The position numbers were made by a program, and so were the translations under genes. From the NCBI GenBank assembly GCA_965204745.1, contig OZ242010.1:4352001-4416000 (forward strand): 64,000 bases of DNA, read 5' to 3'. The notes beneath the pieces are model-generated. The model was not told the DNA's origin. It did not search any database and worked only from the letters and a program-made list of their open reading frames with translations. The stretch is from Candidatus Latescibacterota bacterium. Lineage in GTDB: Bacteria > Latescibacterota > UBA2968. This document shows positions 16,875-64,000 of the stretch, in pieces. The stretch's first letter is position 1; each line of letters starts with the position of its first letter.

Positions 16875-16959
16875 AGGTGAGAGGTGAGAGGCAAGACGGG
16901 AGAGGCAAGAGGTAAGAAGTAAGACGGGAGAGGCAAGAGTCAGTGGTCAGTGGTCAGTA
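16875..16959. repeat. Heptamer tracts (GAGGTGA/GAGGCAA, then GTCAGTG)
   Basis: Direct reading; continues at 17376-17390 beyond the MITE. Confidence 0.85.
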
Positions 16960-20491: not shown

Positions 20492-20514
20492 CCACCCGTG
20501 CGTGCCCTACCGCC

Positions 20515-21190
20515 ATAGACCTATCCCCCGGCCCCTTTCCTACGGGAAAGGAGAGTAGAGTTCCTTTGATGGCTTATATCTATGCTTGTTCTGATGGCTT
20601 TGCGCGAATGGATCGCGCCATAGAAACCCAATCTCGCACAAATCCCTCGCAAGACCCATCGCCATTCCCCCTTCCTTTTAGGAAGGGGGCCCAGGGGGTA
20701 GGTCCCAATCCCGCGCAGGACCTATCCCCCGGCCCCTTTCCTACGAGGAAAGGGGAGTAAAGCTCCTTTGATGGCTTATATCTATGCTTGTTCTGATGGC
20801 TTTGCGCGAATGGATCGCGCCATAGAAACCCAATCTCGCACAAATCCCTCGCAAAATCCATCGCCATTCCCCCTTCCTTTTAGGAAGGGGGCCAGGGGGT
20901 AGGTCCCACCTCGCAAAACCTATCCCCCCGGCCCCCGTTATTCGCTTCGCTCATTGTAGGCTACGCCTGTGCCTACAAGGAAGGGGAGCGCATGGCTTTT
21001 TGAAGTTTGTATCCTTGGCTGTTCTGATGGCGTTTGGGACCTATCCCCCGGCCCCTTTCCTACGAGGAAAGGGGAGTAAAGTTCCTTTGATGGCTTATAT
21101 CAATGGCTACTCTGATGGCGTTGTGCGAGGGCATAAAGCGATTAAAAATCCCTCATCATTCCCCTCGCCATTCCTCTCGCCATTCCCCCT
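20515..21190. repeat. Array of the REP-like hairpin family in alternating orientation, including a ~200-bp direct duplication
   Basis: 20517-20707 is nearly identical to 20719-20908; a further unit at ~21038-21077; same hairpin as at 981 and 17215. Confidence 0.9.
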
Positions 21191-21359
21191 GAGGTTGCAT
21201 AGACAAGGTCGGTAGGCTTGGCGCGAATGGTCGGGACGCGAACCCGAGCGCACACCAGATCCCTTACAAACCCCTCATCACAGGAGGCCCCCTATGTCGA
21301 ACTCTCACCCCGCTTTTGCCGGCATTGATGTCCGTGCCCGCACGTTGTCCATTGCCTTG
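21186..21359 (+). pseudogene. IS110 remnant: 3' part of the non-coding left end plus the first ~22 codons of the recombinase
   Basis: Near identity to the reverse complement of ~31925-32098; MSNSHPAFAGIDVRARTLSIAL vs MSKSHPAFAGIDVSARTLSVAL. Confidence 0.9.
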
Positions 21360-29967: not shown

Positions 29968-30795
29968 ATGGCGCGACCAAGGACTTGGTTGCCGGTTGAA
30001 GGCGCGGTTGACGAGATTCTCGCCCGGGTTCCCCGGCCGTTCGACGCGATGCGGGCGGGCGAGATTCCGGCTGTGATTGTGCGGCGCGCATTTCCGGCAG
30101 AGCACTGCGCGGCACTCATCGCGCGGTTTTACAAACGCGGTCTCCTGTACGACCCGCGCGAAAAGGGCGAACCCCGCCGCGTTGACATCGGCACGAGCTT
30201 GGGCCATCTCGCCCGCGATCCTGACGCCTTCTACGACCATGCGCGGCAGACCCACGCCCTCTTCGCGTCCCTCTTCAACGGGTTCGATGATCCGGTGCAA
30301 ACGCTCTACGACGCGCTCGCCAAAATGCTTCCGCACAAGCGGGTGATGACAGCGCGTAGCCCTGACGGTCGGCTTTACGGCCCCGCGATTTTCAGAACCT
30401 ACTATGAGGGGTTGGGCCACTATCCGCATTATGATTCCGTATCCAAGCGGTCCAAACGCTACGAATTTTCCGCGTCTCGATTCGACCATCAGTTCGCGGG
30501 TGTGCTCTGCTTTCAGAACAGCGAAGTCCGAGGCGACAGCGGGGAGGGCATCCTGTACAACGCGCCCATGGCGCCCGAGTTTCAAGGCCCGCTCGACGAA
30601 AAGCGGTTTCGGGAATACGCGGATCAGCAGGGCATTGCGCGCGTGCAAGTCCACCTCGAACCGGGGGATCTCTACTTTTTTTATTCCGAGACGATTCACG
30701 AAGTCCCCTTTGTCGTCGGCGATGTGCCGCGCGTCGTCCTCGCGTCGTTCATCGGTATGTCCGAGGACGATCCCGAGGTCTATGTCTGGTCTTGA
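29968..30795 (+). CDS. Putative 2OG-Fe(II) oxygenase
   Basis: HYD (HxD) ... GDLYFF..ETIHEV ... PRVV facial-triad pattern. Confidence 0.65.
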   Translation: MARPRTWLPVEGAVDEILARVPRPFDAMRAGEIPAVIVRRAFPAEHCAALIARFYKRGLLYDPREKGEPRRVDIGTSLGHLARDPDAFYDHARQTHALFASLFNGFDDPVQTLYDALAKMLPHKRVMTARSPDGRLYGPAIFRTYYEGLGHYPHYDSVSKRSKRYEFSASRFDHQFAGVLCFQNSEVRGDSGEGILYNAPMAPEFQGPLDEKRFREYADQQGIARVQVHLEPGDLYFFYSETIHEVPFVVGDVPRVVLASFIGMSEDDPEVYVWS

Positions 30796-30814: not shown

Positions 30815-30966
30815 TCGGTGAGACGTAAGAGGGGAGAGGCAAGAGGGGAGAGGGGATTTTAGCCACAAAAGGCACAAAAGGCACAAAAGGTGAGCAGTGT
30901 GTAGGGGCAATGCCCCTGTGCTCGCCCAAAGCGGTGAGAGGGGAGAAGTAAGAGGGGAGAAGTAAG
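30815..30966. repeat. Composite intergenic repeat, left part (heptamers, GGCACAAAA triplet, GTAG REP-like hairpin), interrupted by IS110
   Basis: Same modules at 35985-36260 and 45578-45775; continues at 32258-32390. Confidence 0.85.
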
Positions 30967-30982
30967 ATACTCTCTTAAAAGG

Positions 30983-31990
30983 TCAAGGGGTTTTCGGGGT
31001 GATTCGATAGAATTTTTCGCCCTCAAAATCTTGGTCATGGCGCAACATGCCCCAGATCGAATGGAGCAACTTTCGCATCACCGCAACGATAGCCTGCAAA
31101 GGTTTCTTGCCGCGGGCGATGAGTTGGTCATAGAAGGCTTTGACATGGCCTTCGTGTCTGATGGCCACCCAGGCAGGCATATAGAGGGCATGGCGGAGGT
31201 ACTTATTCCCGGTTTTCGAGATGCGTCTTTGTGGATTGGCGGTTCCGGATTGTTTGGGTTTGGGATCCAGGCCTGCATGTGCGACCCACTGGGGCGGTTG
31301 CATCTCCTCTGGCAAAAGGGTCAACTCGGCCAAGAGCCGCAAGGCACTCGTTTGCGCGATGCCAGGCGTCGAGCAGAGGCGTTGGTAGGCACGCTTGAGG
31401 GGCTCATCGTGCAAAACGAGATCGAGGGCTTGGCTTTCCAAGTATGCAATCCGGCGTTTGAAGTGTCGAATATTCACCTGAATATCGCGTGCGATGAGAC
31501 GTGTGCTGCGGATGTGGTAGCTCTGCGCGTGGTTGCGGCTCTGTTCGCGGATGATCTCCTGCTTGAGTTGGTCAATGCGTCTGGTGAGGGCTTGCAGTTG
31601 AAGCCGTTGCTCGCTCGGCGCTTGCCAAGGCACAAAAGGCATGCGCTCGGCATAGTCGAGGATCAACAACGCATCCTTCGCATCCGTCTTCGCCCGTTGC
31701 ATGCAGGCTTGGGCGTACTTGCTCATCGCTTTGGGATTGACGACCATGACCTTTGTGTGGCGATGCCGATGCAAGGCCAAGGCCACCCCCAAACTGTAAA
31801 GCCCGGTCGCTTCGAGGCACACAGAGACCATGTGCCCGCCCTTCGTGAGCCACTTCAGCAACCGCTTATGCGCTTGGGGATCATTGGCAAAGGTCGCTTG
31901 CATGACAGCTTGTCCGGGTCTGGACAGGGCAACGGACAACGTGCGGGCACTGACATCAATGCCGGCAAAAGCGGGGTGAGATTTCGACAT
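30983..31990 (-). CDS. IS110-family recombinase/transposase
   Basis: DEDD RuvC-like motifs AGIDVS, CLEATG, KTDAKDA; C-terminal PGIA, QSGT (Ser) and AVMRKLL; AGGAGG RBS. Confidence 0.95.
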   Translation of the reverse strand: MSKSHPAFAGIDVSARTLSVALSRPGQAVMQATFANDPQAHKRLLKWLTKGGHMVSVCLEATGLYSLGVALALHRHRHTKVMVVNPKAMSKYAQACMQRAKTDAKDALLILDYAERMPFVPWQAPSEQRLQLQALTRRIDQLKQEIIREQSRNHAQSYHIRSTRLIARDIQVNIRHFKRRIAYLESQALDLVLHDEPLKRAYQRLCSTPGIAQTSALRLLAELTLLPEEMQPPQWVAHAGLDPKPKQSGTANPQRRISKTGNKYLRHALYMPAWVAIRHEGHVKAFYDQLIARGKKPLQAIVAVMRKLLHSIWGMLRHDQDFEGEKFYRITPKTP

Positions 31991-32044
31991 GGGGGCCTCC
32001 TGTGATGAGGGGGTTGTAAGGGATCTGGTGCGCGCTCGGGGTCG

Positions 32045-32245
32045 CGTCCCGACCATTGACGCCAAGTCTACCGGTCTTGTATATGCAGCCTCAAGGGGCT
32101 TAGATACTCTTCGGCATAGACCCGGCGGTCGGGGGGCCTATCTTACCTACAAGGTCATCGCCTTCAAGAGGGGCCGGCCTTCCCCGAGCCGGGCATCAAG
32201 ATGGCTTATCTCGATACGAGGGCGCAACTCCTAATTAACCCTTAC
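32045..32245 (-). ncRNA. Putative bridge RNA
   Basis: In order: GGCCCCTCT (32175-67), GTAAG (32146-42), AGAGTATCT (32110-02), ATACAAG (32082-76). These match target-left, target-right, donor-left and donor-right. Confidence 0.8.
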
Positions 32246-32416
32246 TTCCAAGATACAAGAGGGGAGAAGGCCACCGCGCTGTTCCTCAAGTGGTCAGTGG
32301 TCAGTCCGCCCCGCACAACCCCGTTCCGTTGATGTGCTTTTGAACTGGCTGTCGCCAGTTGTACCCCGCTCGTAGCGAAACTCGTCGTTCATCTCATTTT
32401 TTTTCAGGATTTCATC

Positions 32417-33418
32417 ATGAACCGACCTCCCGAATCCTTTGTGCGCGTGCGTGAAGATCGGCTTTTGGATTTTGCCAAGGCTTGTTTTGAAAAGGCCGGG
32501 CTTGACGCGGATCACGCGGGGATCATCGCACGCCTCCTCGTCAACAGCGATCTGCGCGGGGTTCGCAGCCACGGCACGCGAACCGTCAACGGGTATTGCA
32601 AGAGTTTTGAAAACGGGCACGCCAACCCGCGGCCCAATGTGCGGGTGTTGCACGAGACCCCGACGTGTGCGGTCATCGATGGCGATGGCACGCTCGGGTA
32701 TCTCCCAATGGTGCGCGCGGCAGAACACGCGATTCGCAAAGCCGAGGAACTCGGCATGGGCATGGGCTTGGCGCGGCACATCGGGCATATCGGATCCGCG
32801 GGCCACTATGCGCGGATGTGTTCCGAGGCGGGATGTATTGGTTTTTGCGTTCAAGGCAAACAACACGGCAAGGCGGACAATGACAGCAGGGGGCGGCAAC
32901 TCGGGTACTTTGGCAATCCGCCTATCTGCTTTGCCCTGCCCTCGGGCGACGAGCCGCCGGTGGTGCTCGACGCGGCGACCTGCATCTTGGCGGATTACCA
33001 GCGCGGGGCAACGTTCGACGCCCTGCTCGAAGTGATCCCGGCAGCGTTCTTCAAGAGCATCGGGTACACGGCGGTTGCGGCACTCATCGGCGGGGGATTG
33101 GCTGGCGTCAGTCTGCGGTCCTCCCGTGCCATCGAGGAGAAATGGCGCGCAACGGGCGCGGGGGGTTGCGTCATTGCCATCGATGTCGATGCAGTGATTC
33201 CGGGCGAGATCTTTCGTGAGGAATCGGACCGCATGGTTCGAGATGTCCGCAAGACGTACGACCCCATGCCGGGATATGACCGCGCGCTTTTGCCCGGTGC
33301 TATCGAAGAAGAACACCTGGCCCGGCACCGCGCCGAGGGCATCCGCTATGGCGAGATGGAGCAGGAAAACGCACGGGAAGTCAGCGTGCGATTGGGCGTG
33401 CCTCTGCCCTGGGATTGA
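32417..33418 (+). CDS. Ldh_2-family oxidoreductase (malate/L-lactate/L-sulfolactate dehydrogenase-like)
   Basis: SDLRGVRSHG, IDGDGTLG, GHIGSAGHY and FGNPPICFA motifs. Confidence 0.88.
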   Translation: MNRPPESFVRVREDRLLDFAKACFEKAGLDADHAGIIARLLVNSDLRGVRSHGTRTVNGYCKSFENGHANPRPNVRVLHETPTCAVIDGDGTLGYLPMVRAAEHAIRKAEELGMGMGLARHIGHIGSAGHYARMCSEAGCIGFCVQGKQHGKADNDSRGRQLGYFGNPPICFALPSGDEPPVVLDAATCILADYQRGATFDALLEVIPAAFFKSIGYTAVAALIGGGLAGVSLRSSRAIEEKWRATGAGGCVIAIDVDAVIPGEIFREESDRMVRDVRKTYDPMPGYDRALLPGAIEEEHLARHRAEGIRYGEMEQENAREVSVRLGVPLPWD

Positions 33419-35984: not shown

Positions 35985-36260
35985 AGGTGAGAGGGAAGTT
36001 TAGCCACGAGCGGGGTAAAACTGGCGACAGCCAGTTCAAAGGCACAAAAGGCACAAAAGGGGTACAACTGGCGGTAGCCCGTTCAAAAGCGGGCAGTGTG
36101 TAGGGGCGATGCCCCTGTGCTCGCCCAAAGATACAAGAGGCAAGAGGGAAGAGGCAAGAGGGGAGAAGGCTACCGCGCTATCCCTCTCAAGTCGTCAGTT
36201 GTCAGTTGTCAGTTGTCAGTTGTCAGTTGTCAGTTGTCAGTTGTCAGTTGTCAGTCCGCC
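35985..36260. repeat. Composite intergenic repeat ending in a perfect (GTCAGTT)n tract (~36193-36256)
   Basis: Uninterrupted homolog of the IS110-occupied locus. Confidence 0.88.
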
Positions 36261-49204: not shown

Positions 49205-52200
49205 TCATTGGAAGTGGGAGTCGGGATAGAGGCTTCGGATGAAGGGTTCAATTTGTTGAGCGGTCGTGCGCGTAGCCTGTTGCTCGATGACGTTCCCTCT
49301 GAGGAGGGCCTCGTTCCGGAAGAAGAGGACGTATCGAATGATCAGGATTATATCCGAGAACAGCCTCACATCGCCATCGCCATCCACATCGAGAATGTTC
49401 TGATTGACCAATATGTCGAGGTAGGGTTCAATTTCTTGAGCAGTCGTACGCGTAGCCTGTTGCTCGATGACGTTCCCTCTGAGGAGGGCCTCTTCCCGGA
49501 AGAAGAGGACGTATCGAATGACCAGGATTATATCCGAGAACAGTCTCACCCGGCCATCGCCATCCACATCCAAGTTGGCACTCGGGGTTTCGTCATCGGT
49601 AATGGTCAGGGTCACGTCCGAGGGATCGTTGATGCCTTGGGTGTTGTTTGCGGTTGCAGACACCGTGACCGTCTTCTCGTCTGCCCGGGCGTCGTTGTCC
49701 ACGGCGGTGATCGTCACGGTGCCCGTGCTCGTCGTCTCACTCGCCGCGATGATCAGCGTGTCTGCACTCGATAGCGTGAAGTCGCTCGCAGTTGCAGGCG
49801 ACACAGCCTCCGCTGAAACAGTGATCGTCGTAACCGCGCTCGATGGATGCGATAGGGTCGCGCTCACCGTTGAAACCCCGCCGTTTTCCGAGATGGACGA
49901 GGGCATCAGCACCAACGTCACGGTCGGCGCGACCTCATCGTCTGTGATCGTCAATGTCACGACAGACGATAGCGACGCCATATTGCCACCCGCCACCGTC
50001 GCAGACACGGTCACGCGCTTGTCCGGCGCATCGGTCGTATCGTTCACTGCGGTGATCGTCACGCTGCCCGTGCTCGTCGTCACATTCGCCGCGATAGTCA
50101 GCGTGGTCGCACCCGATAGCGTGAAGTCACTCGCCTCCGCAGGCGACACAGCCTCCGCTGAAACAGTGATCGTCGTCGCCTCGGTCACGGTGCGATCCAG
50201 CGTCGCTGTGATCGTCGAAACCGCACCATTTTCAGAAATCGACGCCGGAGACAAAACCAACGTCACCTGCGGCACTTCGTCATCGATAATCGTCAGCGTC
50301 GCATCAGTGACCGATCCCGCGCCCACGCTGTTGCCCACCGTGCTCGACACGGTCACCGTCTTGTTCCCCGAAGTCACGGCGTTATCCACCGTCGTGATCG
50401 TCACGGTGCCCGTGCTCGTCGTTTGCCCCGCCGCAACGAGCAGCGTGTCCGCCGTGCTCAGCGTGTAATCGCCTGCAACAGCAGGTTGCACAGGCGTCAC
50501 GGAAACCGTGATCGTCGTCGCCGCGCTCGACGGGTGAGACAGGGTCGCCGTCACGGTCGAAATCGCGCCGTTCTCCAAAATCGACGCAGGTGCCACCGCC
50601 ATCGTCACTGTCGGCGCAGGGTCGTCGTCCGTGATCGTCAAAGTCGCACTGGTCACGCCCACGCCTTGGTCGTTGCTCATTACACCGGACACGGTCACAC
50701 GCTTGTCCGGCGCATCGGTTGTATCGTTCACCGCTGTGATCGTCACGATGCCCGTGCTCGTCGTCACACTCGCCGCGATAGTCAGCGTGTTCGCGCTCGA
50801 TAGCGTGAAGTCGCCTGCCACCGCGTCCGCGACCGTGATCGTCACCGCCGCGTTCAACGCTTTATTCAATGTTGCTGTCACAGTCGTCTGATTGGTTGGG
50901 CCACTCTCGTTGATCGTCGAGGGCGTGAGCACCAATTTCACCGCAGTCTGTGCGGCAAATTGCGCGGTGGTGTCCATACCGGAATACTTCAAGACCGGAT
51001 ACTGACTCGACGTGCCAAAGGTCCACGGATCGTCGTCGCCCGGTTGCCCGTCCAGGTTCTGGTTCCAATTCATGTAGATGTCGGTGTAGCCGGTGGGGGT
51101 TTGCAATACGCTGGTGGTCTTGCCCTCCGGCGCGGCATCGCCGGCGTCGTCGGCAATGCCGGTGCTTGCGGTGTTCCAATAGCTGTCGGTCACAATGGCG
51201 GCGGCAGATTTCGCCACAATAAACCCGGTGTTTGTGGTGGCGTCGCCGGTGGCTGTGACGTTGCCGATGGCGTAGGTGGCGTTTATTGAACTTACGTTTG
51301 TGCTGTTGCTGGCGAATGCGCCTATCAGTGCGCCTGCATACGCTCTGCTACTTGTGCCGGTGGCGGAGGAAGATACGTTACCTATGGCGTAGGCTGAGTT
51401 AATCGCGCTGGCTGCGCTGGCCGGGGTGGAAGTGGCAGCTATGAAGCCCACCAGTCCGCCGGTGTAACTTATGGAATTTGCGCCGGTGGAGGAGCCAGTA
51501 ACGGTGCCGGTGGCGTAGCCGCCATTTAGCGTCGCGCTTAGCATGTACCCCAGCAACCCGCCACCCATGACCCTGTTGCTATTGGGGCCGGATCCCGTGA
51601 CATTGCCGGTGGCATAGCTCGAGGTGACCGTGCCATTTCTTATTAGTTCTCCCACCAGTCCACCGAAGTAAATTCTGTAGTCGGCGGTGCCGACGACGTT
51701 GCCGGTGGCGTGGCTTGAGGTAATGCCTGCCTCTGCTCGCCCTACCAAGCCGCCAATTCTCAAGGATATTTCATCAGAACCGGTGGTGGCATTGACATTG
51801 CCGGTGGCGCGGCTTGAATTTATCCCACTTTGGGATCTTCCCACCAGACCGCCAACCATCGCCTGGGCATCGTCGGCGGTAACGGTGACGGTGCCGGTGG
51901 CGTAGCTTGAGGTAACGGTGCCCTTGTTCCGCCCCATCAAGCCGCCGATCTGTACAGTATTAGATTGCGGTGGTGAACCAACATAGGAGTCGGCGAGATT
52001 AACGCTGACGTCGCCGGTGGCGTAGCTTGAGGTAACGGTGGCACTTTGCCCCATCAAGCCGCCGACAGATATGTCTGCCCTTGCATGCGGAGCAGTGCCG
52101 GGGACTGTGGAATGAACGGATACGGTCACGCTGGCGTAGCTTGAGGTAACGGAGTCGACGGCGCCGACTAAGTCCGCCCCGATTAGACCGCCGGTGTAGT

Positions 52201-53235: not shown

Positions 53236-56200
53236 TCATTCGAAGTGAGAGTCGGGATAGAGGCTTCGGATGAAGGGTTCAATTTCTTGAGCGGTCGTGC
53301 GCGTAGCCTGTTGCTCGATGACGTTCCCTCTGACGAGGGCATCTTCCCGGAAGAAGAGGACGTATCGAATAATCAGGATTATATCCGAGAACAGTCTCAC
53401 ATCGCCATCGCCATCCACATCGAGAATGTTCTGATTGACCAATATGTCGAGGTAGGGTTCAATTTGTTGAGCAGTCGTACGCGTAGCCTGTTGCTCGATG
53501 ACGTTCCCTCTGAGGAGGGCCTCTTCCCGGAAGAAGAGGACATATCGAATGACCAGGATTATATCCGAGAACAGTCTCACCCGGCCATCGCCATCCACAT
53601 CCAAGTTGGCACTCGGGGTTTCGTCATCGGTAATGGTCAGGGTCACGGGTGCGGGTGCGGTGATGCCTTGGGTGTTGTTTGCGGTTGCAGACACCGTGAC
53701 CGTCTTCTCGTCTGCCCGGGCGTCGTTGTCCGCTGCGGTGATCGTCACGGTGCCCGTGCTCGTCGTCTCACTCGCCGCGATGATCAGCGTGTCTGCACTC
53801 GATAGCGTGAAGTCGCTCGCAGTCGCAGGCGACACAGCCTCCGCTGAAACAGTGATCGTCGTGATCGCGCTCGACGGATGCGACAGCGTCGCGCTCACCG
53901 TGGAAACCTCGGCGTTTTCCGAGATGGACGAGGGGGTGAGCACCAACGTCACGTCCGGCGCTTGGTCATCGTCCGTGATCGTCAGGGTCTCGGAAGATGA
54001 TAGCACCGCCATATTGCCACCCGCCACCGTCGCAGACACGGTCACGCGCTTGTCCGGTGCATCGGTCGTATTATTCACCGCTGTGATCGTCACGGTGCCC
54101 GTGCTCGTCGCCACATTCGCCGCGATAGTCAGCGTGGTCGCACCCGATAGCGTGAAGTCACTCGCCTCCGCAGGCGACACAGCCTCCGCTGAAACAGTGA
54201 TCGTCGTCGCCACGGCTACGGTGCGATCCAGCGTCGCTGTGATCGTCGAAACCTCGGCATTTTCAGAAATCGACGACGGAGACAAAACCAACGTCACCTG
54301 CGCCGCTTCGTCATCGATAATCGTCAGCGTCGCATCAGTGACCGATCCCGCGCCCACGCTGTTGCCCACCGTGCTCGACACGGTCACCGTCTTGTTCCCC
54401 GAAGTCACGGCGTTGTCCACCGTCGTGATCGTCACAGTGCCCGTGCTCGTCGTTTGCCCCGCCGCGACGATCAGCGTGTCCGCCGTGCTCAGCGTGTAAT
54501 CGCCTGCAACAGCAGGTTGCACAGGCGTCACGGAAACCGTGATCGTCGTCGCCGCGCTCGATGGATGCGACAGGGTCGCCGTCACGGTCGAAATCGCGCC
54601 GTTCTCCAAAATCGACGCAGGTGCCACCGCCATCGTCACGGTCGGCGCGGCGTCATCGTCCGTCAGCGTCAAATCAGCCCCGGTCACACTGCCCACGCCT
54701 TGGTCGTTGCGCGCCATACCAGACACGGTCACGCTACGATCAAGTTCGTCTTGGGCGTTGTCCACCGCAGTGATGACCACCGTGTCCGACGCGTTCGCCA
54801 TTTGCCCGGCTGCAATGGCAATCGTCGAATCCGCCCCCACCGCGTAAGCACCAGCCACAGGGCGCACCGTGATCGTCGTCGCCGCGCTCGATGGGTATGC
54901 CAGCGTCGCTGTCACGGTGCTCACACCGCCGTTCTCCGAAATCGACACGGGCATCAGTGCCAACGTCACTACCGCGGGTTGTAGCGTAAATTGCGCGGTG
55001 GCGTCCAGACCGGCATACTTCAACACGGGATACTGATTCGTCGCGCCAAAGTTCCACGGATCGTCGTTGCCCGCTTGTCCGTCCAGATTCAGGTTCCAGT
55101 CGGCATAGATGCTACCGACGGTATAGCCGGTGATGCTTTGGAGGGCACTGGTGGTTTGAGCGCCAGTGGTGCTGCTACTGGTGCCAGCGGTGGTGGTCTG
55201 CCCGGTGGTTTGGGTGTCCCAGTAGCTGTTGGTCATCGGCGTGGCTGAACCACCCTGTTCTCCCGCCAGGCCGCCGGTGGCTGTGGTGCCGGTGCTGGTG
55301 TTGGAAACAGCGCCGATAGCATAGACGGCGGTTATCGAGTTGGCGTCATTGACCTGCACGCGGCCTGTCAGACCGCCCGCTTTGACGCCGGTGCCGCTAC
55401 CAGAAACGTTCCCGGTTGCGTAGCTGGCGCGCAGGTATTCGCCACCATCGAGATTTATCTCCCCCATCAGGCCGCCCACTTTGAGGCTTTGGATGGTGGT
55501 GGCACCGGTGCCGGTGCCACTACCGGAAACGTTCCCGGTCGCGTAGTTGGCGAAGCTGGAACCTCCCATTCTCCCTATCAGGCCGCCCACTCTACCTCGG
55601 CCGGTGGCTGTGACATTCCCGGTCGCGTAGCTGACGCTGACCCGGACAGTGGAATAACCGATCAGGCCACCGGCGGTGACGACGTCGCTCCCGGGCCCGG
55701 AGCTGGTGACCGTCCCAGTGGCGTAGGTGGAGTCGACGCTACCGCTCACATCGGATTCCCCGATCAGGCCGCCGAGGTTAAGCACATTGTTGTTCGTTCC
55801 GACCACATTGCAGGTGGCGTAGCTATCGCTGATGGTCCCATTGGAGTAGCCCAACAGACAGCCGATATAGCCGAAACTGCCACTGCCGGTGGTGTGGGTT
55901 ACGGAGCCGCCGGCAATGTAGCTCCCACGCACCGTGCCGCCGGCACTGAGTTTCCCCGCCAGAGCACCGGTTCGGCCAAAGTTAGTGCCGGTGGCAGTGC
56001 GGGTGTTGGTGATATTCACGTCCAACAAGCCCACATCTCTAATCGTGCCGCTGACATCGCCGAACAGACCGACGAAACTGCCGCCGGTGGCGGTGCTGGT
56101 GCTAGAATTGATAAACAAGTTGGAAATGGTGTTGTCATTGCCGTCAAAGATGGCAGAGAAGACGGTTGCAGCACCGCTGGCGTCAACACCGATGGCCGTC

Positions 56201-59200
56201 CAGTTGGGGTAGTCGTCGCCGGCATCTACGCTCCCGCTACCATTGGAGTCAAAGTCCAAGTTGTTCATCAACTCGTAGCCGGTGCAGGTGGCCGGGCAAC
56301 CCATGCCCGTGGCGGCGTTGGGGAATGCGGTGGTGTAGTTCGTCCAGTCGCTGGCACTGACGCTGCCTTGTGCGCCATCGCCATCGAGGTCATAGCGAAT
56401 GGCATTCAGTTGTGCCAAGGTGGTGATGTCAATCAAGTTATCGTTGTCCGTATCGTAGCCGGACCCGTCATCATCGGTGATCGTCCCGGTGCCGGTGAGG
56501 GTCGTGACCTCGCCGGTGAGGGTCGCATTGACAGGATTGCTCAACTCGACGACCACGGTCTCATTTAGCTCGATGGCGTCGTCACCGCGGACAGTCACGG
56601 CAATGGTATCGCTCGTCACGCCAGCCGCTAAGGTCAGCGTACCAGCAGTGATTGCTGTGTAGTCCGTGCCCGAAGTCGCGGTCCCGCTACCCGCGTCCTC
56701 ATAGCCCACCGTCACTTGCTGACCACTGACCGCGCTCAACGTCACGATGAACTCAAGAGACGCCGTCTCCGTATCGTCGCCCTCGGCCACACTCGGAGAA
56801 CTAATACTCAGCGTCGGCGCGCCATCATCGTCCATCAGCGTCAAATCAGCCCCGGTCACACTGCCCACGCCTTGGTCGTTGATCGCCACACCAGACACGG
56901 TCACGCTACGATCAGCCTCGTCTTGGGCGTTGTCCACCGCAGTGATGACCACCGTGTCCGACGCGTTCGCCGTTTGACCGGCTGCGATGGCAATCGTCGA
57001 ATCCGCCCCCACCGTGTAAGCACCAGCCACAGGGCGCACCGTGATCGTCGTCGCCTCGCTCGATGGGTGTGCCAGCGTCGCCGTCACCGTCGAAACACCG
57101 CCGTTCTCCGAGATCGACGCGGGCATCAGTGCCAACGTCACTATCGCGGGTTGTAGCGTAAATTGCGCGGTGGTGTCCAGGCCGGCATACTTCAACACGG
57201 GGTACTGATTCGTCGCGCCAAAGTACCACGGATCGTCGTTGCCCGCTTGCCCGTCCAGATTCAGGTTCCAGTCGGCATAGATGCTACCGGCGGTATAGTC
57301 GGTGATGCTTTGGAGGGCACTGGTGGTTTGAGCGCCAGTGGTGCTACTGCTGGTTCCAGCGGTGGTGGTCTGCCCGGTGGTTTGGGTGTCCCAGTAGCTG
57401 TTGGTCATCGGCGTGGCTGAACCATCCTGTACTCCCGCCAGGCCGCCGGTGTCTGTGATGCCGGTGCTGGTGCTGGAAACAGCGCCGATAGCATAGACAG
57501 CACTTATCGAGTTGGCGTCATTGACCATCACGCGGCCTATCAGACCGCCCGCTTTGACGCCGGTGCCACTACCAGAAACGTTCCCGGTCGCGTAGCTGGC
57601 GCGCAGGTATTCGCCACTATCAATCTCTATATATCCTGTCAGGCCGCCCATGTTGAGGCTTTGGACGTCGGTGGCACCGGTGCCGGTGCCACTACCGGAA
57701 ACATTCCCGGTCGCGTAGTTGGCGAAGCTGGGACCAGCCATTTTCCCTGTCAGGCCGCCCACGACGCCTCTACTGTCCCCGGAAACGTTCCCAGTCGCGT
57801 AGCTGACGCTGATCTGACCTTCGTTCCTACCGATCAGGCCGCCGACGGCAATCAGGCCGATACCGGTACCGGTACTGGTGACCGTCCCAGTGGCGTAGGT
57901 GGTATCGACAGTACCGCCAGCATCGGATTTCCCGATCAGGCCGCCGATATTAAGCGAATAGTTGTTCGTTCCGGCCAAATTGCAGGTGGCGTAGCTGTCG
58001 CGGACGGTGCCATCGGAGTAGCCCAACAGACAGCCGATATGGCTGGTACTGGTACTGCTGGTAGTGTGGGTTACAGAGCCGCCGGCAACGTGGCTCCCGC
58101 GCACCGTGCCGCCGCTACTGAGGCGCCCCGCCAGAGCACCGGTTCGACCATCGCTCGCACCGGTGCGGGTGTTGGTGATATTCACGTCCTCCAAGCCCAC
58201 ATCTCTAATCGTGCCGGTGACATTGCCGAACAGACCGACGAAACCGCCGCCGGTGGCGGTGCTGGTGCTCAAATTGATAAACAAGTTGGAAATGGTGTTG
58301 TCATTGCCATCAAAGATGGCAGAGAAGACGGTTGCAGCACCGCTGGCGTCAACACCGATGGCCGTCCAGCCGGCACCGCTGTTCCAGTAGGCGCCGCCGT
58401 GGTCGTTGGCGTCCACGGTACCGCTGTTGTCGCTGTCGAAGTCCAAGTTGTTCATCAGTTCGTAGCCGGTGCAGGTGGCCGGGCAACCCATGCCCGAGGC
58501 GGCGGCGGGAAAGGCGGCGTTGTAGTTCATCGTATCACTATCGGCTACGGCGCCATCGCCATTGAGGTCATAGCGAATGGCATTCAGTTGCGCCAAGGAG
58601 GTGACATCAATCAGGTTGTCGTTGTCCGTGTCGTAGTCAATTTGGTCATCATCTCTAATCGTTCCGGTGCCGGTGAGGGTTGTGGCCCCGCCGCTGAGGG
58701 TCGCATTGCTCGGACTGCTCAGCGTCACGATCACGGTCTCATTCGGCTCATTGGCGTCGTCACCGGTGACGGACACGGCAAGGGTATCGCTCGTCACGCC
58801 CGCCGCTAAGGTCAGCGTGCCGGCAGTGATTGCCGTGTAGTCCGTGCCCGAAGTCGCGGTCCCGGTGCCCGCGTCCTCATAGCCCACCGTCACTACCTTC
58901 GTACTCGCCGCACTCAACGAGACGATGAACTCAAGCGACGCCGTCTCCGTATCGTCGCTCTCATCCACACTCGCATCAGCAATACTCAACGTCGGCTCGT
59001 CGTCATCATCGGTGATCGTTCCGGTGCCGGTGAGGGTTGAACCACCGCCGGTGAAGGTCGCATTGCTCGGAGTGCTCAGCGTCACGATCACGGTCTCATC
59101 ATCCTCATCAAGGGCATCGCCAAGGACGGACACGGCAAGGGTATCACTCGTCACGCCAGCCGCAATCGTCAACGTACCGGAAGTAATTTCGGTGTAGTCC

Positions 59201-62200
59201 GTGCCCGAAGTCGCGGTCCCGCTAGTCGCGTCTGCATAGGCCACCGTCACTTGCCGACCACTGACCGCGCTCAACGAGACGATGAACTCAAGCGACGGCG
59301 TGGCGCCAGTGGTACCCTCGTCCACACTCGCATCAGCAATACTCAGCGTCGGCGTCGCGTCATCATCGGTAATCGTTCCGGTGCCGGACGCCGTGCTTAT
59401 CGCCGCATTGCTCGCACTGCTCAGCGTCACGATCACGGTCTCATCATCCTCATCAAGGGCATCGCCGAGGACAGTCACGGCAAGGGTATCGCTCGTCACG
59501 CCAGCCGCTAAGGTCAGCGTGCCAGCAGTGATTGCGGTGTAGTCATCTCCCGAAGTCGCGGTCCCGCTACCCGCGTCCTCATAGTCCACCGTGACTTGCT
59601 GACCACTCGCCTCGTTCAACGTCACGATGAACTCAAGGGATGAGGAACCGCTCCCCTCGGTCACAGTCGGAGAACTAATACTCAGCCTCGGCACGCCGTC
59701 ATCATTGGTGATCGTTCCGGTGCCGGTGAGGGTCGTGCCCCCGCCGCTGAAGGTCGCATTGCCCGCACTGCTCAACTCAACGACCACGGTCTCATCCGGC
59801 TCGTTGGCATCGTCACCGGTGACGGACACGGCAAGGGTATCGCTCGTCACGCCAGCCGCTAACGTCAGCGTGCCGGAAGTGATTGCCGTGTAGTCCGTGC
59901 CCGAAGTCGCGGTCCCGCTAGTCGCGTCCGCATAGCCCACCGTTACTACCTTCCCACTCGCCGCGCTCAACGAGACGATGAACTCAAGCGACGGCGTCTC
60001 CCCAGCGTCACCCTCGGTCACACTCGCATCAGCAATACTCAACGTCGGCTCGTCGTCATCATCGGTGATCGTTCCGGTGCCGGTGAGGGTTGCGTTCCCG
60101 CCGCTGAAGGTCGCATTGCTCGCACTGCTCAACTCGACGATCACGGTCTCATTCTCCTCATCGAGGACATCGCCAAGGACAGACACGGCAAGGGTATCAC
60201 TCGTCACACCAGCCGCAATCGTCAACGTACCGGAAGTAATTTCGGTGTAGTCTGTGCCCGAAGTCGCGGTCCCGCTAGTCGCGTCCGCATAATCCACCGT
60301 CACTTGCCGACCACTGACCGCGCTCAACGAGACGATGAACTCAAGCGACGGCGTGGCGCCAGTGGTGCCCTCGGCCACACTCGGAGAATCAATACTCAGC
60401 GTCGGCGTCGCGTCATCATCGGTGATCGTTCCGGTGCCGGTCGCCGTGCTTATCACCGCATTGACCGCATTGCTCAACTCGACGATCACGGTCTCATTAT
60501 CCTCATCGAGGGCATCGGCGAGGACTGATACGGCAAGGGTATCGCTCGTCACGCCAGCCGCAATCGTCAGCGTGCCAGACGCAAGGGCAGTGTAGTCCGC
60601 TCCCGGCGTCGCGGTCCGACCCGTAGCGGTTTCCGCATAGTCCACCGTAACTTGCAGACCACTCGCCGCGTTCAACGTCACGACGAACTCAAGGGATGAG
60701 GAACCGCTCCCCTCGGCCACAGTCGGAGAACTAATACTCAGCCTCGGCACGCCGTCATCATTGGTGATCGTTCCGGTGCCGGTAAGGGTCGTGGCCCCGC
60801 CGGTGAAGGTCGCATTGCTCGGATTGCTCAGCGTCACGACCACAGTCTCATCCGGCTCGTTGGCGTCGTCACCGGTGACGGACACGGCAAGGGTATCGCT
60901 CGTCACGCCAGCCGCTAAGGTCAGCGTGCCGGCAGTGATTGCCGTGTAGTCCGTGCCCGAAGACGCGGTCCCGCTAGTCGCATCCACATAATCCACCGTC
61001 ACTACCTTCCCACTCGCCGCGCTCAACGAGACGATGAACTCAAGCGACGGCGTCTCCCCAGCGTCACCCTCGGTCACACTCGCATCAGCAATACTCACCA
61101 CCGGCGGGTCGTCATCATCGGTGATCGTTCCGGTACCGGTGAGGGTTGCGTTCCCGCCGCTGAAGGTCGCATTGCTCGCACTACTCAGCGTCACGATCAC
61201 GGTCTCATCATCCTCATCGAGGACATCGCCAAGGACAGTCACGGCAAGGGTATCGCGCGTCACGCCAGCCGCTAAGGTCAGCGTGCCGGAAGTGATTGCC
61301 GTGTAGTCCGTGCCCGAAGACGCGGTCCCGCTAGTCGCGTCCGCATAATCCACCGTCACTTGCCGACCACTGACCGCGCTCAACGAGACGATGAACTCAA
61401 GCGACGGCGTGGCGCCAGTGGTGCCCTCGGCCACACTCGCAGAAGCAATACTCAGCGTCGGCGTCGCGTCATCATCGGTGATCGTTCCGGTGCCGGTCGC
61501 CGTGCTGATCGTCGCATTGACCGCATTGCTCAACTCGACGACCACGGTCTCATTCTCCTCATCGAGGGCATCGGCGAGGACTGATACGGCAAGGGTATCG
61601 CGCGTCACGCCAGCCGCAAACGTCAGCGTGCCGCCAGTGATTGCCGTGTAGTCCGCTCCCGGCGTCGCGGTCCGACCCGTAGCGGTTTCCGCATAGTCCA
61701 CCGTGACTTGCTGACCACTCGCCGCGCTCAACGTCACGATGAACTCGAGGGATGAGGAACCGCTCCCCTCGGTCACAGTCGGAGAACTAATACTCAGCGT
61801 CGGCACGCCATCATCATTGGTGATCGTTCCGGTGCCGGTCGCCGTGCTTATCGTCGCATTGCTCGGATTGCTCAGCGTCACGATCACAGTCTCATTCGGC
61901 TCGTTGGCGTCGTCACCGGTGACGGATACGGCAATGGTATCGCTCGTCACACCCGCAGCAAACGTCAATGTGCCAGAATCAAGGGCAGTGTAGTCCACCC
62001 CCGGCGTCGCGGTCCGACCCGTAGCGGTTTCCGCATAGTCCACCGTCACTTGCCGACCACTGACCGCGCTCAACGTGACGATGAACTCAAGCGACGCTGT
62101 CTCCGTCGCGTCGCTCTCATCCACACTCGGAGAACCAATACTCAGCGTCGGCGGGTCATCATCATCGGTTAGCGTCAAATTCGCGTAGGGCAAACCGCCC

Positions 62201-64000
62201 ACGCCTTGGTCGTTGACCGCCCAATGGGACACGAGCACGATGCGATTAGGCTCGTCGTCTTGGGCGTTGTCCACCGCCGTGATGACCACCGTGTCCGACG
62301 CGTTCGTCGTGTCCCCGGCTACAATGACAATCGTCGAATCAGCCGCCACCGTGTAGGTGTTGCCCAAGAGGGGACGCACCGTGATCGTTGTCGCCGCGCT
62401 CGACGGACGCGACAGCGTCGCGCTCACCGTGCTCACGCCGCCGTTTTCCGAAATCGACGCGGGTGACAGCGACAGCCTCACGTCCGGCGCGGCGTCATCG
62501 TCTGTGATCGTCAGGGTCCTGGAAGCCAGCGATGCCACATCGTCGCCTGCCACCGTTCCAGACACGCCTAAGCGCTTGGCCGGTGCATCGGTCGTGTTGT
62601 TCACCGCCGTGATGACCACCGTGTCCGACGCGTTCGTCGTGTCCCCGGCCGCAATGGTGATCGTCGAATCCGACCCCACCGTGTAAGCACCGGTCACCGG
62701 GCGCACCGTGATTGTTGTCGCATCACTCGATGGATGCGACAGCGTCGCGCTCACCGTCGAAACACTACCAGCCTCAGAAATCGACATGGGCGACAGTGCC
62801 AATGTCACCGTCGGTTTATCCAGCGCGAGGCCATAGGGCGTAGTCAATCCTGTGGTGATGAGGTCTTCGACATTGGAGCCATTGAGGTCGGCACGCTGAA
62901 TCTTATCTGTGCCACTGTCCGTCCAGTACATCTTTCCGCCCCCCACATCCAGCGCGATGGCCTCTATCCCACTCAATCCTGTGGTGATGAGGTCTTCGAC
63001 ATTGGAGCCATCGAGGTCGGCACGCTGAATCTTAGCCGGGATCTGGTCCATCCAGTACATCTTTCCGCCCCCCACATCCAGCGCGAGGCCCCATGGCCTA
63101 TCCAATCCTGTGGTGATGAGGTCTTCGACATTGGAGCCATCGAGGTCGGCACGCTGAATCTTATTCGTGCCACTGTCCGTCCAGTACATCTTTCCGCCCC
63201 CCACATCCAGCGCGATGGCCCATGGCGTTCTCAATCCTGTGGTGATGAGGTTTTCGAAATTGGAGCCATTGAGGTCGGCACGCTGAATCCTACTCGTGCG
63301 ACTGTCCGTCCAGTACATCTTGCCGCCCCCCACATCCAGCGCGATGCCATATGGCCTACTCAATCCGCTGATGAGGTCTTCGACATTGGAGCCATCGAGG
63401 TCGGCACGCTGAATCTTATTCGTGCCATAGTCCGTCCAGTACATCTTGCCGCCCCCCACATCCAGCGCGATGCCAAATGGATTATTCAATCCTGTGGTGA
63501 TGAGGTCTTCGACATTGGAGCCATCAAGGTCGGCACGCTGAATCTTATTCGTGCCATAGTCCGCCCAGTACATCTTGGGCGCGTCATCGTCTTCCAGCGT
63601 CAAAGCCGCACCGATCACACTGCCCAGGCCATGGTCGTTGCGTGCCACACCGGACACGGTCACGGCGCGATTAACCTCGTATTGACCGTTGTCCACCGCC
63701 GTGATCGCTACCGTGTCCGACGCGTTCGTCGTGTCCCCGGCCGCGATGGTGATCGTCGAATCCTGTCCCACCGTGTAGGCATTGGCTAAGGGACGCACCG
63801 TGATCGTTGTCGCCGCGCTCGACGGATGCGACAGCTTCGCGCTCACCGTGCTCACGCCGCCGTTTTCCGAAATCGACGCGGGTGACAGCGACAGCGTCAC
63901 GACCAGCGTGGCGTCATCATTGGTGATCGTCCCGGTACCGGTCGCCGTGCTTATCGTCGCATTGACCGCATTGCTCAACTCAACGACCACGGTCTCATTT
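53236..64000 (-). CDS. Giant adhesin-like protein (>3580 aa, start outside the window): YWTD propeller, Calx-beta array, two GLUG-like modules, shared C-terminus
   Basis: Six KMYW(T)D...IQRADL(D/N)GS repeats at ~62815-63580; about ten ~117-aa Calx-beta units at 58640-62160; GLUG modules at ~54960-56460 and ~57130-58640. Confidence 0.92.
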   Translation of the reverse strand, partial: NETVVVELSNAVNATISTATGTGTITNDDATLVVTLSLSPASISENGGVSTVSAKLSHPSSAATTITVRPLANAYTVGQDSTITIAAGDTTNASDTVAITAVDNGQYEVNRAVTVSGVARNDHGLGSVIGAALTLEDDDAPKMYWADYGTNKIQRADLDGSNVEDLITTGLNNPFGIALDVGGGKMYWTDYGTNKIQRADLDGSNVEDLISGLSRPYGIALDVGGGKMYWTDSRTSRIQRADLNGSNFENLITTGLRTPWAIALDVGGGKMYWTDSGTNKIQRADLDGSNVEDLITTGLDRPWGLALDVGGGKMYWMDQIPAKIQRADLDGSNVEDLITTGLSGIEAIALDVGGGKMYWTDSGTDKIQRADLNGSNVEDLITTGLTTPYGLALDKPTVTLALSPMSISEAGSVSTVSATLSHPSSDATTITVRPVTGAYTVGSDSTITIAAGDTTNASDTVVITAVNNTTDAPAKRLGVSGTVAGDDVASLASRTLTITDDDAAPDVRLSLSPASISENGGVSTVSATLSRPSSAATTITVRPLLGNTYTVAADSTIVIVAGDTTNASDTVVITAVDNAQDDEPNRIVLVSHWAVNDQGVGGLPYANLTLTDDDDPPTLSIGSPSVDESDATETASLEFIVTLSAVSGRQVTVDYAETATGRTATPGVDYTALDSGTLTFAAGVTSDTIAVSVTGDDANEPNETVIVTLSNPSNATISTATGTGTITNDDGVPTLSISSPTVTEGSGSSSLEFIVTLSAASGQQVTVDYAETATGRTATPGADYTAITGGTLTFAAGVTRDTLAVSVLADALDEENETVVVELSNAVNATISTATGTGTITDDDATPTLSIASASVAEGTTGATPSLEFIVSLSAVSGRQVTVDYADATSGTASSGTDYTAITSGTLTLAAGVTRDTLAVTVLGDVLDEDDETVIVTLSSASNATFSGGNATLTGTGTITDDDDPPVVSIADASVTEGDAGETPSLEFIVSLSAASGKVVTVDYVDATSGTASSGTDYTAITAGTLTLAAGVTSDTLAVSVTGDDANEPDETVVVTLSNPSNATFTGGATTLTGTGTITNDDGVPRLSISSPTVAEGSGSSSLEFVVTLNAASGLQVTVDYAETATGRTATPGADYTALASGTLTIAAGVTSDTLAVSVLADALDEDNETVIVELSNAVNAVISTATGTGTITDDDATPTLSIDSPSVAEGTTGATPSLEFIVSLSAVSGRQVTVDYADATSGTATSGTDYTEITSGTLTIAAGVTSDTLAVSVLGDVLDEENETVIVELSSASNATFSGGNATLTGTGTITDDDDEPTLSIADASVTEGDAGETPSLEFIVSLSAASGKVVTVGYADATSGTATSGTDYTAITSGTLTLAAGVTSDTLAVSVTGDDANEPDETVVVELSSAGNATFSGGGTTLTGTGTITNDDGVPRLSISSPTVTEGSGSSSLEFIVTLNEASGQQVTVDYEDAGSGTATSGDDYTAITAGTLTLAAGVTSDTLAVTVLGDALDEDDETVIVTLSSASNAAISTASGTGTITDDDATPTLSIADASVDEGTTGATPSLEFIVSLSAVSGRQVTVAYADATSGTATSGTDYTEITSGTLTIAAGVTSDTLAVSVLGDALDEDDETVIVTLSTPSNATFTGGGSTLTGTGTITDDDDEPTLSIADASVDESDDTETASLEFIVSLSAASTKVVTVGYEDAGTGTATSGTDYTAITAGTLTLAAGVTSDTLAVSVTGDDANEPNETVIVTLSSPSNATLSGGATTLTGTGTIRDDDQIDYDTDNDNLIDVTSLAQLNAIRYDLNGDGAVADSDTMNYNAAFPAAASGMGCPATCTGYELMNNLDFDSDNSGTVDANDHGGAYWNSGAGWTAIGVDASGAATVFSAIFDGNDNTISNLFINLSTSTATGGGFVGLFGNVTGTIRDVGLEDVNITNTRTGASDGRTGALAGRLSSGGTVRGSHVAGGSVTHTTSSTSTSHIGCLLGYSDGTVRDSYATCNLAGTNNYSLNIGGLIGKSDAGGTVDTTYATGTVTSTGTGIGLIAVGGLIGRNEGQISVSYATGNVSGDSRGVVGGLTGKMAGPSFANYATGNVSGSGTGTGATDVQSLNMGGLTGYIEIDSGEYLRASYATGNVSGSGTGVKAGGLIGRVMVNDANSISAVYAIGAVSSTSTGITDTGGLAGVQDGSATPMTNSYWDTQTTGQTTTAGTSSSTTGAQTTSALQSITDYTAGSIYADWNLNLDGQAGNDDPWYFGATNQYPVLKYAGLDTTAQFTLQPAIVTLALMPASISENGGVSTVTATLAHPSSEATTITVRPVAGAYTVGADSTIAIAAGQTANASDTVVITAVDNAQDEADRSVTVSGVAINDQGVGSVTGADLTLMDDDGAPTLSISSPSVAEGDDTETASLEFIVTLSAVSGQQVTVGYEDAGSGTATSGTDYTAITAGTLTLAAGVTSDTIAVTVRGDDAIELNETVVVELSNPVNATLTGEVTTLTGTGTITDDDGSGYDTDNDNLIDITTLAQLNAIRYDLDGDGAQGSVSASDWTNYTTAFPNAATGMGCPATCTGYELMNNLDFDSNGSGSVDAGDDYPNWTAIGVDASGAATVFSAIFDGNDNTISNLFINSSTSTATGGSFVGLFGDVSGTIRDVGLLDVNITNTRTATGTNFGRTGALAGKLSAGGTVRGSYIAGGSVTHTTGSGSFGYIGCLLGYSNGTISDSYATCNVVGTNNNVLNLGGLIGESDVSGSVDSTYATGTVTSSGPGSDVVTAGGLIGYSTVRVSVSYATGNVTATGRGRVGGLIGRMGGSSFANYATGNVSGSGTGTGATTIQSLKVGGLMGEINLDGGEYLRASYATGNVSGSGTGVKAGGLTGRVQVNDANSITAVYAIGAVSNTSTGTTATGGLAGEQGGSATPMTNSYWDTQTTGQTTTAGTSSSTTGAQTTSALQSITGYTVGSIYADWNLNLDGQAGNDDPWNFGATNQYPVLKYAGLDATAQFTLQPAVVTLALMPVSISENGGVSTVTATLAYPSSAATTITVRPVAGAYAVGADSTIAIAAGQMANASDTVVITAVDNAQDELDRSVTVSGMARNDQGVGSVTGADLTLTDDDAAPTVTMAVAPASILENGAISTVTATLSHPSSAATTITVSVTPVQPAVAGDYTLSTADTLIVAAGQTTSTGTVTITTVDNAVTSGNKTVTVSSTVGNSVGAGSVTDATLTIIDDEAAQVTLVLSPSSISENAEVSTITATLDRTVAVATTITVSAEAVSPAEASDFTLSGATTLTIAANVATSTGTVTITAVNNTTDAPDKRVTVSATVAGGNMAVLSSSETLTITDDDQAPDVTLVLTPSSISENAEVSTVSATLSHPSSAITTITVSAEAVSPATASDFTLSSADTLIIAASETTSTGTVTITAADNDARADEKTVTVSATANNTQGITAPAPVTLTITDDETPSANLDVDGDGRVRLFSDIILVIRYVLFFREEALLRGNVIEQQATRTTAQQIEPYLDILVNQNILDVDGDGDVRLFSDIILIIRYVLFFREDALVRGNVIEQQATRTTAQEIEPFIRSLYPDSHFE

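Follow-up and report, generated by a model that had tools for sequence, protein, structure and literature searches.

How does an insertion sequence come to lie exactly between two units of a short tandem repeat, and what in the element could specify such a site? The question is raised by the interval 30965-32259 of a 64,000-nt stretch of DNA (hereafter the window) from a Candidatus Latescibacterota bacterium (assembly GCA_965204745.1, contig OZ242010.1, positions 4,352,001 to 4,416,000), in which a first-pass annotation had recognised an IS110-type recombinase and had proposed that its guide RNA is aimed at the tandem repeats of the genome itself. Here we present an analysis of this element, of its copies in the same genome and of its relatives in related genomes. 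The interval is very probably an autonomous insertion sequence (IS) of the IS110 subgroup which moves by bridge-RNA-guided recombination in the fashion of IS621, the founding bridge-RNA element of E. coli, whose natural target is also a host-genome repeat, the repetitive extragenic palindrome (REP) (PMC11208160, PMC11208158). The 52 full-length copies in the genome share a 12-bp target that matches the predicted guides, occupancy of candidate sites drops as guide mismatches rise, and subfamilies and relatives with changed guides are found at correspondingly changed sites.

The interval is composed of a 1291-bp element plus one CT on each side and is read on the minus strand. The left junction reads ...GGTGGCCTTCTCCCCT-CT-TGTATCTTGGAAG..., or CCCCT-CT-TGTATC with the core at 32259-32258, and the right junction reads ...TTGACCTTTTAAGAGAGTAT-CT-TACTTCTCCCCTCTTAC..., or AGAGTAT-CT-TACTT with the core at 30966-30965. 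Excising the element and one CT in silico restores a tandem of three 14-nt units, two of them TTCTCCCCTCTTAC and the third with one mismatch, while Tandem Repeats Finder (TRF), given the unjoined flanks, reports 2.2 repeat copies at 30937-30967. Both the CT at each junction and the restored tandem had been noted in the first-pass annotation and were borne out here. The layout consists of 267 nt of non-coding sequence before the gene and only 16 nt beyond its stop codon, with the following features, all on the minus strand of the window and listed from left end to right end:

32260-32269, minus: tract on the left of the interruption, with the left target ...CTTCTCCCCT; read from the sequence.
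32258-32259, minus: left copy of the CT core (left target/core/left end); CT stands at the left end in 52/52 copies.
31991-32257, minus: non-coding left end, 267 nt, predicted source of the bridge RNA; conserved in 23 variants from three genomes.
32250-32255, minus: TATCTT, putative -10 half of a promoter that would be complete only at the circle junction; read from the sequence.
32167-32175, minus: predicted left target guide GGCCCCUCU (DNA word GGCCCCTCT), 5' strand of internal loop 1; only its CCCCUCU matches targets.
32142-32148, minus: AGGUAAG, on the 3' strand of internal loop 1; predicted right target guide, with CTTACCT as its complement.
32139-32141, minus: AUA, candidate handshake guide adjoining the right target guide; complementary to TAT, the final 3 nt of the right end.
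32102-32110, minus: predicted left donor guide AGAGUAUCU (DNA word AGAGTATCT), 5' strand of internal loop 2.
32076-32082, minus: AUACAAG, on the 3' strand of internal loop 2; predicted right donor guide, with CT-TGTAT as its complement.
30983-31990, minus: recombinase gene, 335 aa, ATG at 31990, with AGGAGG just upstream of the ATG.
30967-30986, minus: right end, closing with AGAGTAT; the putative -35 half TTGACC, at 30981-30986, overlaps the stop codon; read from the sequence.
30965-30966, minus: right copy of the CT core, read from the sequence; CT stands at both junctions in 52/52 copies.
30937-30964, minus: heptamer tract on the right of the interruption, with the right target TACTT..., from sequence and TRF.

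An end-to-end check found no inverted repeat linking the element ends, and this, together with the upstream position of the non-coding region, assigns the element to the IS110 rather than the IS1111 subgroup. The marks of the IS1111 (seekRNA) group are lacking, in that there are no 11-13-bp subterminal inverted repeats and the non-coding region is not downstream of the gene. The recombinase matches PF01548 (1.2e-24, 87.3 bits) and PF02371 (4.8e-20, 72.2 bits), both above cut-off, and its residues 7-326 align with both bridge recombinases of solved structure, that of ISCro4 (E 7.6e-40) and that of IS621 (E 5.8e-36). Residues D12, E60, D103, D106 and S248-G249 align opposite the residues described as catalytic in IS621, D11, E60, D102, D105 and S241 (with G242) (PMC11208158), so that all five are kept.

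The left end has the organization expected of a bridge RNA. In the single-sequence minimum free energy (MFE) fold, GGCCCCU... and ...UAAGAUA flank one internal loop and AAGAGUAUCUA and GCAUAUACAAGAC flank a second, with the target loop predicted 5' of the donor loop; RNAalifold recovers both of these stem-loops from 23 variants of the left end, taken from three genomes. Pair counts were made on a 14-sequence alignment including two more distant relatives, in which 96.8% of cells are paired in the fold, as against 31-54% when the structure is slid, and four pairs have changed on both sides, a covariation score that 0/500 shuffles reach. The four guide-like words reported in the first-pass annotation are indeed present 5' to 3' on the minus strand in IS621 order, and by all three analyses they fall on the two strands of the two loops. 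The right target guide had been given as GTAAG, which is present but is part of a longer guide of 7 nt, AGGUAAG. The left donor guide equals the right end plus core at 9/9 positions, and the right donor guide matches the left end at 7/7, each in 51/52 copies; in the left-end alignment variation is concentrated in the target loop, and the left donor guide is nearly invariant. The target guides fit the consensus site CCCCT-CT-TACCT at 7/7 and 7/7 positions. The AUA of the target loop, a candidate handshake guide, is complementary to the donor's TAT, as such a guide would be (concept in PMC11208158).

To see where else the element resides, it was compared by blastn with the window's own genome (G000, 5.48 Mb, one contig). 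This yielded 77 rows, of which 52 are full length: 30 at 100% identity, 7 at 99.1-99.9%, 8 at 96.1%, one at 95.75%, one at 94.8% and 5 at 88.5-89.1%. The other rows are fragments from about 20 truncated copies. A PF01548 scan of the genome gave 57 matches, every one of this family, which is therefore the sole IS110-type family in G000. When the segments 100-600 nt out from each copy end were compared, 0/5356 flank pairs aligned over at least 300 nt; the copies are thus separate insertions rather than segmental duplications. At about 10 places in G000 truncated copies begin exactly at element position 1 and end after 42-880 nt, and truncated copies that keep the left start outnumber fragments with the right end only. 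The window itself holds, at 21185-21356 on the plus strand, a 172-bp piece of the same IS corresponding to element positions 162-332 at 91% identity; it takes in the beginning of the gene together with some of the RNA region.

The 52 insertions do not lie in unrelated sequence. After in silico deletion of the copies, 47/52 insertion points fall within the 1.03% of the genome that TRF assigns to period-7n tracts, and within 30 nt the core of 50/52 copies is surrounded by two or more heptamer units in register. The targets have the consensus CCCCT-CT-TACCT, and the logo of the 45 main-family copies reads tCTCCCCT-CT-T[A/G]CCTCTT. The 12-bp target CCCCTCTTACCT is non-palindromic and lies within tandem heptamers, and is thus not a target of the REP palindrome type. 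The first-pass annotation had the guide aimed at a non-palindromic 7/14-bp repeat; the heptamer tract stands, but the recognised unit is the junction of two particular heptamer variants and not the 14-mer as such. Its observation that the word CCCCTCTTAC recurs in the window was reproduced exactly, with four occurrences (9172, 9200, 30825 and 30948) against 0.04 expected from shuffles. The chance expectation for any random 12-mer in the genome is less than 1, and it is confirmed that target sharing among the 52 independent copies, with the same 12-bp target, exceeds chance.

Occupancy in the IS-less genome drops as guide mismatches rise. The perfect 12-mer is occupied at 20/25 sites, CCCCTCTTGCCT, which carries a U:G wobble, at 17/82, and TACCTCTTACCT at 4/87; all one-mismatch sites together are occupied at 18/238 and all two-mismatch sites at 5/1090. 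Abundant near-cognate junctions were found unoccupied, namely CCCGTCTTACCT (0/53), CGCCTCTTACCT (0/27) and CCCCTCTTACGT (0/18). TRF counts about 1,320 period-7n tracts genome-wide, 411 of them CT-rich (25 kb), and with a period of 7 the tracts are unreadable in one frame. The window copy sits between an open reading frame (ORF) ending at 30795 and an ORF starting at 32417, which is consistent with a harmless landing zone, and the tracts may serve as the expandable safe harbour that had been suggested. Two copies of different subfamilies (96% and 100%) lie in the same orientation only 7 bp apart in one tract (G000:C1:1121592-1124182), so that an occupied tract still offers sites. The copy orientation of 32:20 mirrors that of the empty sites, 45:25. 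An orientation bias relative to replication was considered and dropped, since the cumulative GC skew gave an implausible origin/terminus pair and the ratio of the copies merely tracks that of the empty sites.

Natural variation in the guides provides a separate view of specificity. In the main class (GGCCCCTCT / AGGTAAG, 45 copies) the left target is CCCCTCT in 41/45 copies, and the right targets are CTTACCT in 24, CTTGCCT (an rU:dG wobble) in 17, CTTACTT in one, CTTGCCC in one and CTCCCGT in two. The window copy is the only one of the 45 on CTTACTT, which entails an rG:dT wobble. The copy at 1297034 has the guides GGTCCCTCT / AGGTGAG and the target TTCCCT-CT-CACCT, and all 14 compared positions fit. 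In the 88-89% subfamily the guides are GGCGCCTCT (GG[C/T]GCCTCT) / AAGTAAG, and the target is CTCGCCT, or a wobble variant of it, followed by CT-TACTT. Thus the change of guide that the first-pass annotation had wished to see accompanied by a change of target is met with in nature as covariation.

The same holds outside this genome. Of 60 related genomes, four (G018, G016, G057 and G042) hold relatives whose protein is at least 54% identical. The 18 copies in G018 have the guides CTCGCCTCT / GGGAG and sites with CTCGCCT- or CTCACCT-type units followed by CT-CCCGT, and 17/18 are in heptamer context. The seven copies in G016 have the guides GATCC[T/C]CCT / AGAAAAG and sites of the form ...CCYC-CT-TTTCT, with 0/7 in heptamer context, and in G057 and G042 pairing is seen at the same loop positions with non-repeat sites. 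In all, eight guide classes across three genomes, plus G057 and G042, fit changed flanks. We compared each copy's guide with its own target at 10 non-core positions and permuted the assignments 10,000 times: own-guide matches number 665/770 as against 538 +/- 10 when shuffled, and for G000 alone 480/520 as against 459.8 +/- 2.8, and in both cases 0/10,000 shuffles reach the observed value. In its recombinase G000 is nearer to G016 (80-84%) than to its sister genome G018 (76-78%) (loci L031-L055); set against the rpoB tree, this kinship means that the history of the element does not simply follow that of its hosts.

These data can be assembled into a mechanism, in which the RNA encoded by the 267-nt left end would carry two internal loops. 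One of them, the donor loop (AGAGUAUCU / AUACAAG), would read the joined ends of the element, AGAGTAT-CT-TGTAT, and the other, the target loop (CCCCUCU / AGGUAAG), would read the 12-bp CCCCT-CT-TACCT, which would be met as the junction of a CTCCCCT and a CTTACCT unit within CT-rich heptamer tracts at hundreds of genomic places. Circularisation would join the right-end -35 box to the left-end -10 box, and the DEDD and serine recombinase would exchange strands at the CT core. The circle junction would form TTGACC-18-TATCTT, a spacing for which our direct count agrees with that of the first-pass annotation. In G018, G016, G042 and G057 a TTGAMY -35-like hexamer would stand 17 nt from TATCTT (TACCTT in G057), and by its sequence the split -35/-10 arrangement appears conserved in five lineages. 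We infer that the RNA is produced, that the circle forms and that the family is active at present.

Several observations weigh against this interpretation. The leading GG of the 9-nt left target guide pairs in 0/52 copies, and so the specified target is 12 bp; the 9-nt word of the first-pass annotation is present, but its first two bases never take part. Within the main family the left target matches at only 5/7 positions in 4/45 copies and the right target at only 4/7 in 2/45, and the copy at 602780 misfits its own guides (6/7 and 5/7), perhaps as a hybrid of two subfamilies. The candidate handshake guide of the donor loop (AC) pairs with only 1/2 target bases. The fold statistics are supportive and not independent, as the structure was derived from the same close sequences (87% mean column identity), and a search of Rfam 15 (E up to 1) matched no family, returning only 19-bit ylbH noise, from a library that may lack a bridge-RNA family. 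Finally, no promoter-like site was found upstream of the predicted RNA in the integrated state, so that expression rests on the circle model.

Could the recombinase itself, or the structure of polypyrimidine DNA, pick the site, with the guide-like words being functionless leftovers of a tract? The targets are strand-asymmetric, pyrimidine-rich repeats, and a structural layer on top of base pairing has been reported for ISPpu10 (10.64898/2026.03.19.712850). However, of the abundant types of heptamer junction, roughly 30 in number, the element uses only one, and occupancy tracks the number of guide mismatches, neither of which agrees with such a choice, and the subfamilies and relatives with changed guides are at correspondingly changed sites, two such relatives having non-repeat targets; we regard this explanation as very improbable. 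An equally slight chance is given to the proposal that the family is now inert, the pattern being the residue of an earlier burst and the left-end RNA having fallen out of production or use. In its favour are the truncated copies noted above, and no circle or empty-site contig was recovered from Logan contigs of four runs, where contigs break in repeats, none spans the stretch and joint sides, in repeated DNA, reach at most 35 nt. Yet 30 copies are identical across 1294 bp with reading frames intact, which points to very recent movement, and guides and ends are intact in 51/52 copies.

The idea that the tracts are the product of the element, as footprints or through recombinase-driven duplication of units, rather than a pre-existing target, is barely more probable than these two. 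Four-unit CT-heptamer windows number 1283 in G000 and 1196 in G018, both of which carry tract-targeting copies, as against 0-20 in the other 19 congeners (3 in G016). But G000 and G018 are sisters in the rpoB tree, (G016,(G018,G000)) with support 100/100, so that tract expansion and heptamer targeting amount to a single historical event. Moreover, tracts of the same kind occur in low numbers in 15 same-genus genomes in which the element was not found, the 411 CT-rich tracts far exceed the 52 copies, and known IS110 insertion leaves no duplication besides the core.

Among known systems the closest is IS621, with which the element shares a full-length homologous recombinase with D/E/D/D/S kept, a left-end RNA (predicted here) with target loop then donor loop, the CT core inside each of the four guides, pairing of the left guides with the bottom strand and of the right guides with the top strand, a -35 box in the right end and a host repeat as natural target. 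It differs in that the target is a non-palindromic junction of two heptamers instead of the REP palindrome, in that the right target guide is naturally 7 nt, as compared with 4 nt in IS621, in that the left guide is effectively 7 nt instead of 9, and in its host, an uncultured Latescibacterota bacterium rather than E. coli. The best match among solved structures is the ISCro4 / IS622-type recombinase (PDB 9t56), at the E value and over the residues given above, a comparison that concerns the protein only. ISPpu10 of Pseudomonas putida is similar in that all its insertions are described at copies of one conserved intergenic repeat (10.64898/2026.03.19.712850); there a target-encoded stem-loop is reported to add specificity, whereas here the flank logo reveals no conserved stem-loop beside the 12-bp site. 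The seekRNA elements of the IS1111 group are likewise described as DEDD recombinases with RNA-guided, sequence-specific insertion, at targets including REP, attC and short linear sites, but with a non-coding region downstream of the gene and 11-13-bp subterminal inverted repeats (PMC11187229), where ours is upstream and has no repeats.

The first-pass annotation had called the element a natural bridge-recombinase variant with readable guides. The guides can be read directly from the sequence, but "variant" overstates what is an ordinary IS621-type mechanism: the mechanism is already known, and it is the target class that is unusual and was not found in print. The accounts we drew on name REP, attC and transposon ends, besides a short linear site, as natural IS110 targets. 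We found no publication on an IS110 element aimed at a tandem heptamer repeat, although supplementary target lists might include repeat tracts. The present family extends natural IS110 targets beyond palindromic REPs, attC sites and transposon ends. It also makes of a single genome a natural specificity experiment, where 52 independent insertions and four guide classes can be set against more than 1,300 graded candidate sites, and in which perfect sites are near-saturated, one rU:dG wobble is tolerated and other mismatches are hardly used. Additionally, at 1291 bp and 335 aa it is a compact orthologue whose right target guide is 7 nt long by nature, a length that IS621 is reported to have reached only through engineering for higher specificity. 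For the element, a tandem heptamer tract is non-coding ground with many places to land, where fresh and intact sites are still available 7 bp away from one that is occupied.

A second repeat touches on the element at its left end. A REP-like element present about 85-119 times genome-wide begins CT-TGTATCTT[T/C]GGGCGAGCACGGGGGCATCGCCCCTAC, of which the first 10 nt are those of the IS left end including the core, and its likeness to the left end in G018 extends to about 20 nt. The shared start is the right-donor half-site. In the window it is met at two places:

About 35990-36140, minus: REP-like element.
30893-30935: REP-like copy in which the TGTAT border is lacking.

The motif CTTGTATCTTYGGRCR occurs 85 times in G000, 105 in G016 and 182 in G018, all of which bear the IS, and 0-2 times in 18 congeners. 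No orphan right ends were found, and no match to a Y1 transposase (RAYT-type, PF01797) in G000 or G016, which leaves ordinary RAYT-driven REPs unsupported as an identity for these repeats. Placement of the REP-like elements by the resident left target guide was rejected because the upstream sequences of 20 examined G016 copies are diverse. Nor was the genus-wide co-occurrence of tracts, REP-like element and IS accepted as independent support for any link, since G000, G018 and G016 form one clade (100/100) and so represent one or two events.

In a 2026 preprint, the boundaries of expanded IS110 loci are reported to carry half-matched donor arms. A larger picture, rather improbable when its two parts are taken together, would make the element and the host's intergenic repeats one co-evolving system. 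Under the first part, co-resident subfamilies would split the heptamer "address space" by one or two guide-base changes each, and CT-heptamer expansion in the G000/G018 lineage would have allowed the element to multiply. Under the second, the REP-like element could serve the recombinase as a substrate or as a non-autonomous partner, by way of half-matched donor-arm recombination.

The window also contains repeats of other kinds. A second heptamer class (CTGACTA, GTCAGTG, AGTTGTC) is present at 1498-1529, 16939-16958, 32289-32305 and 36190-36255; it is the commonest period-7 unit class genome-wide and is unused by the element. Long tandem or dispersed repeats of 357, 129/384 and 180 nt, at 58645-62169, 62818-63577, and 49243-49570 and 53274-53601, are probably repetitive coding sequence. 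Tandem repeats of 94 and 202 nt, at 933-1255 and 20509-20935, share the motif ...ACCTATCCCCCGGCCCCTTTCCTACG.GAAAGG.GAGTAAAGC and represent another intergenic repeat family.

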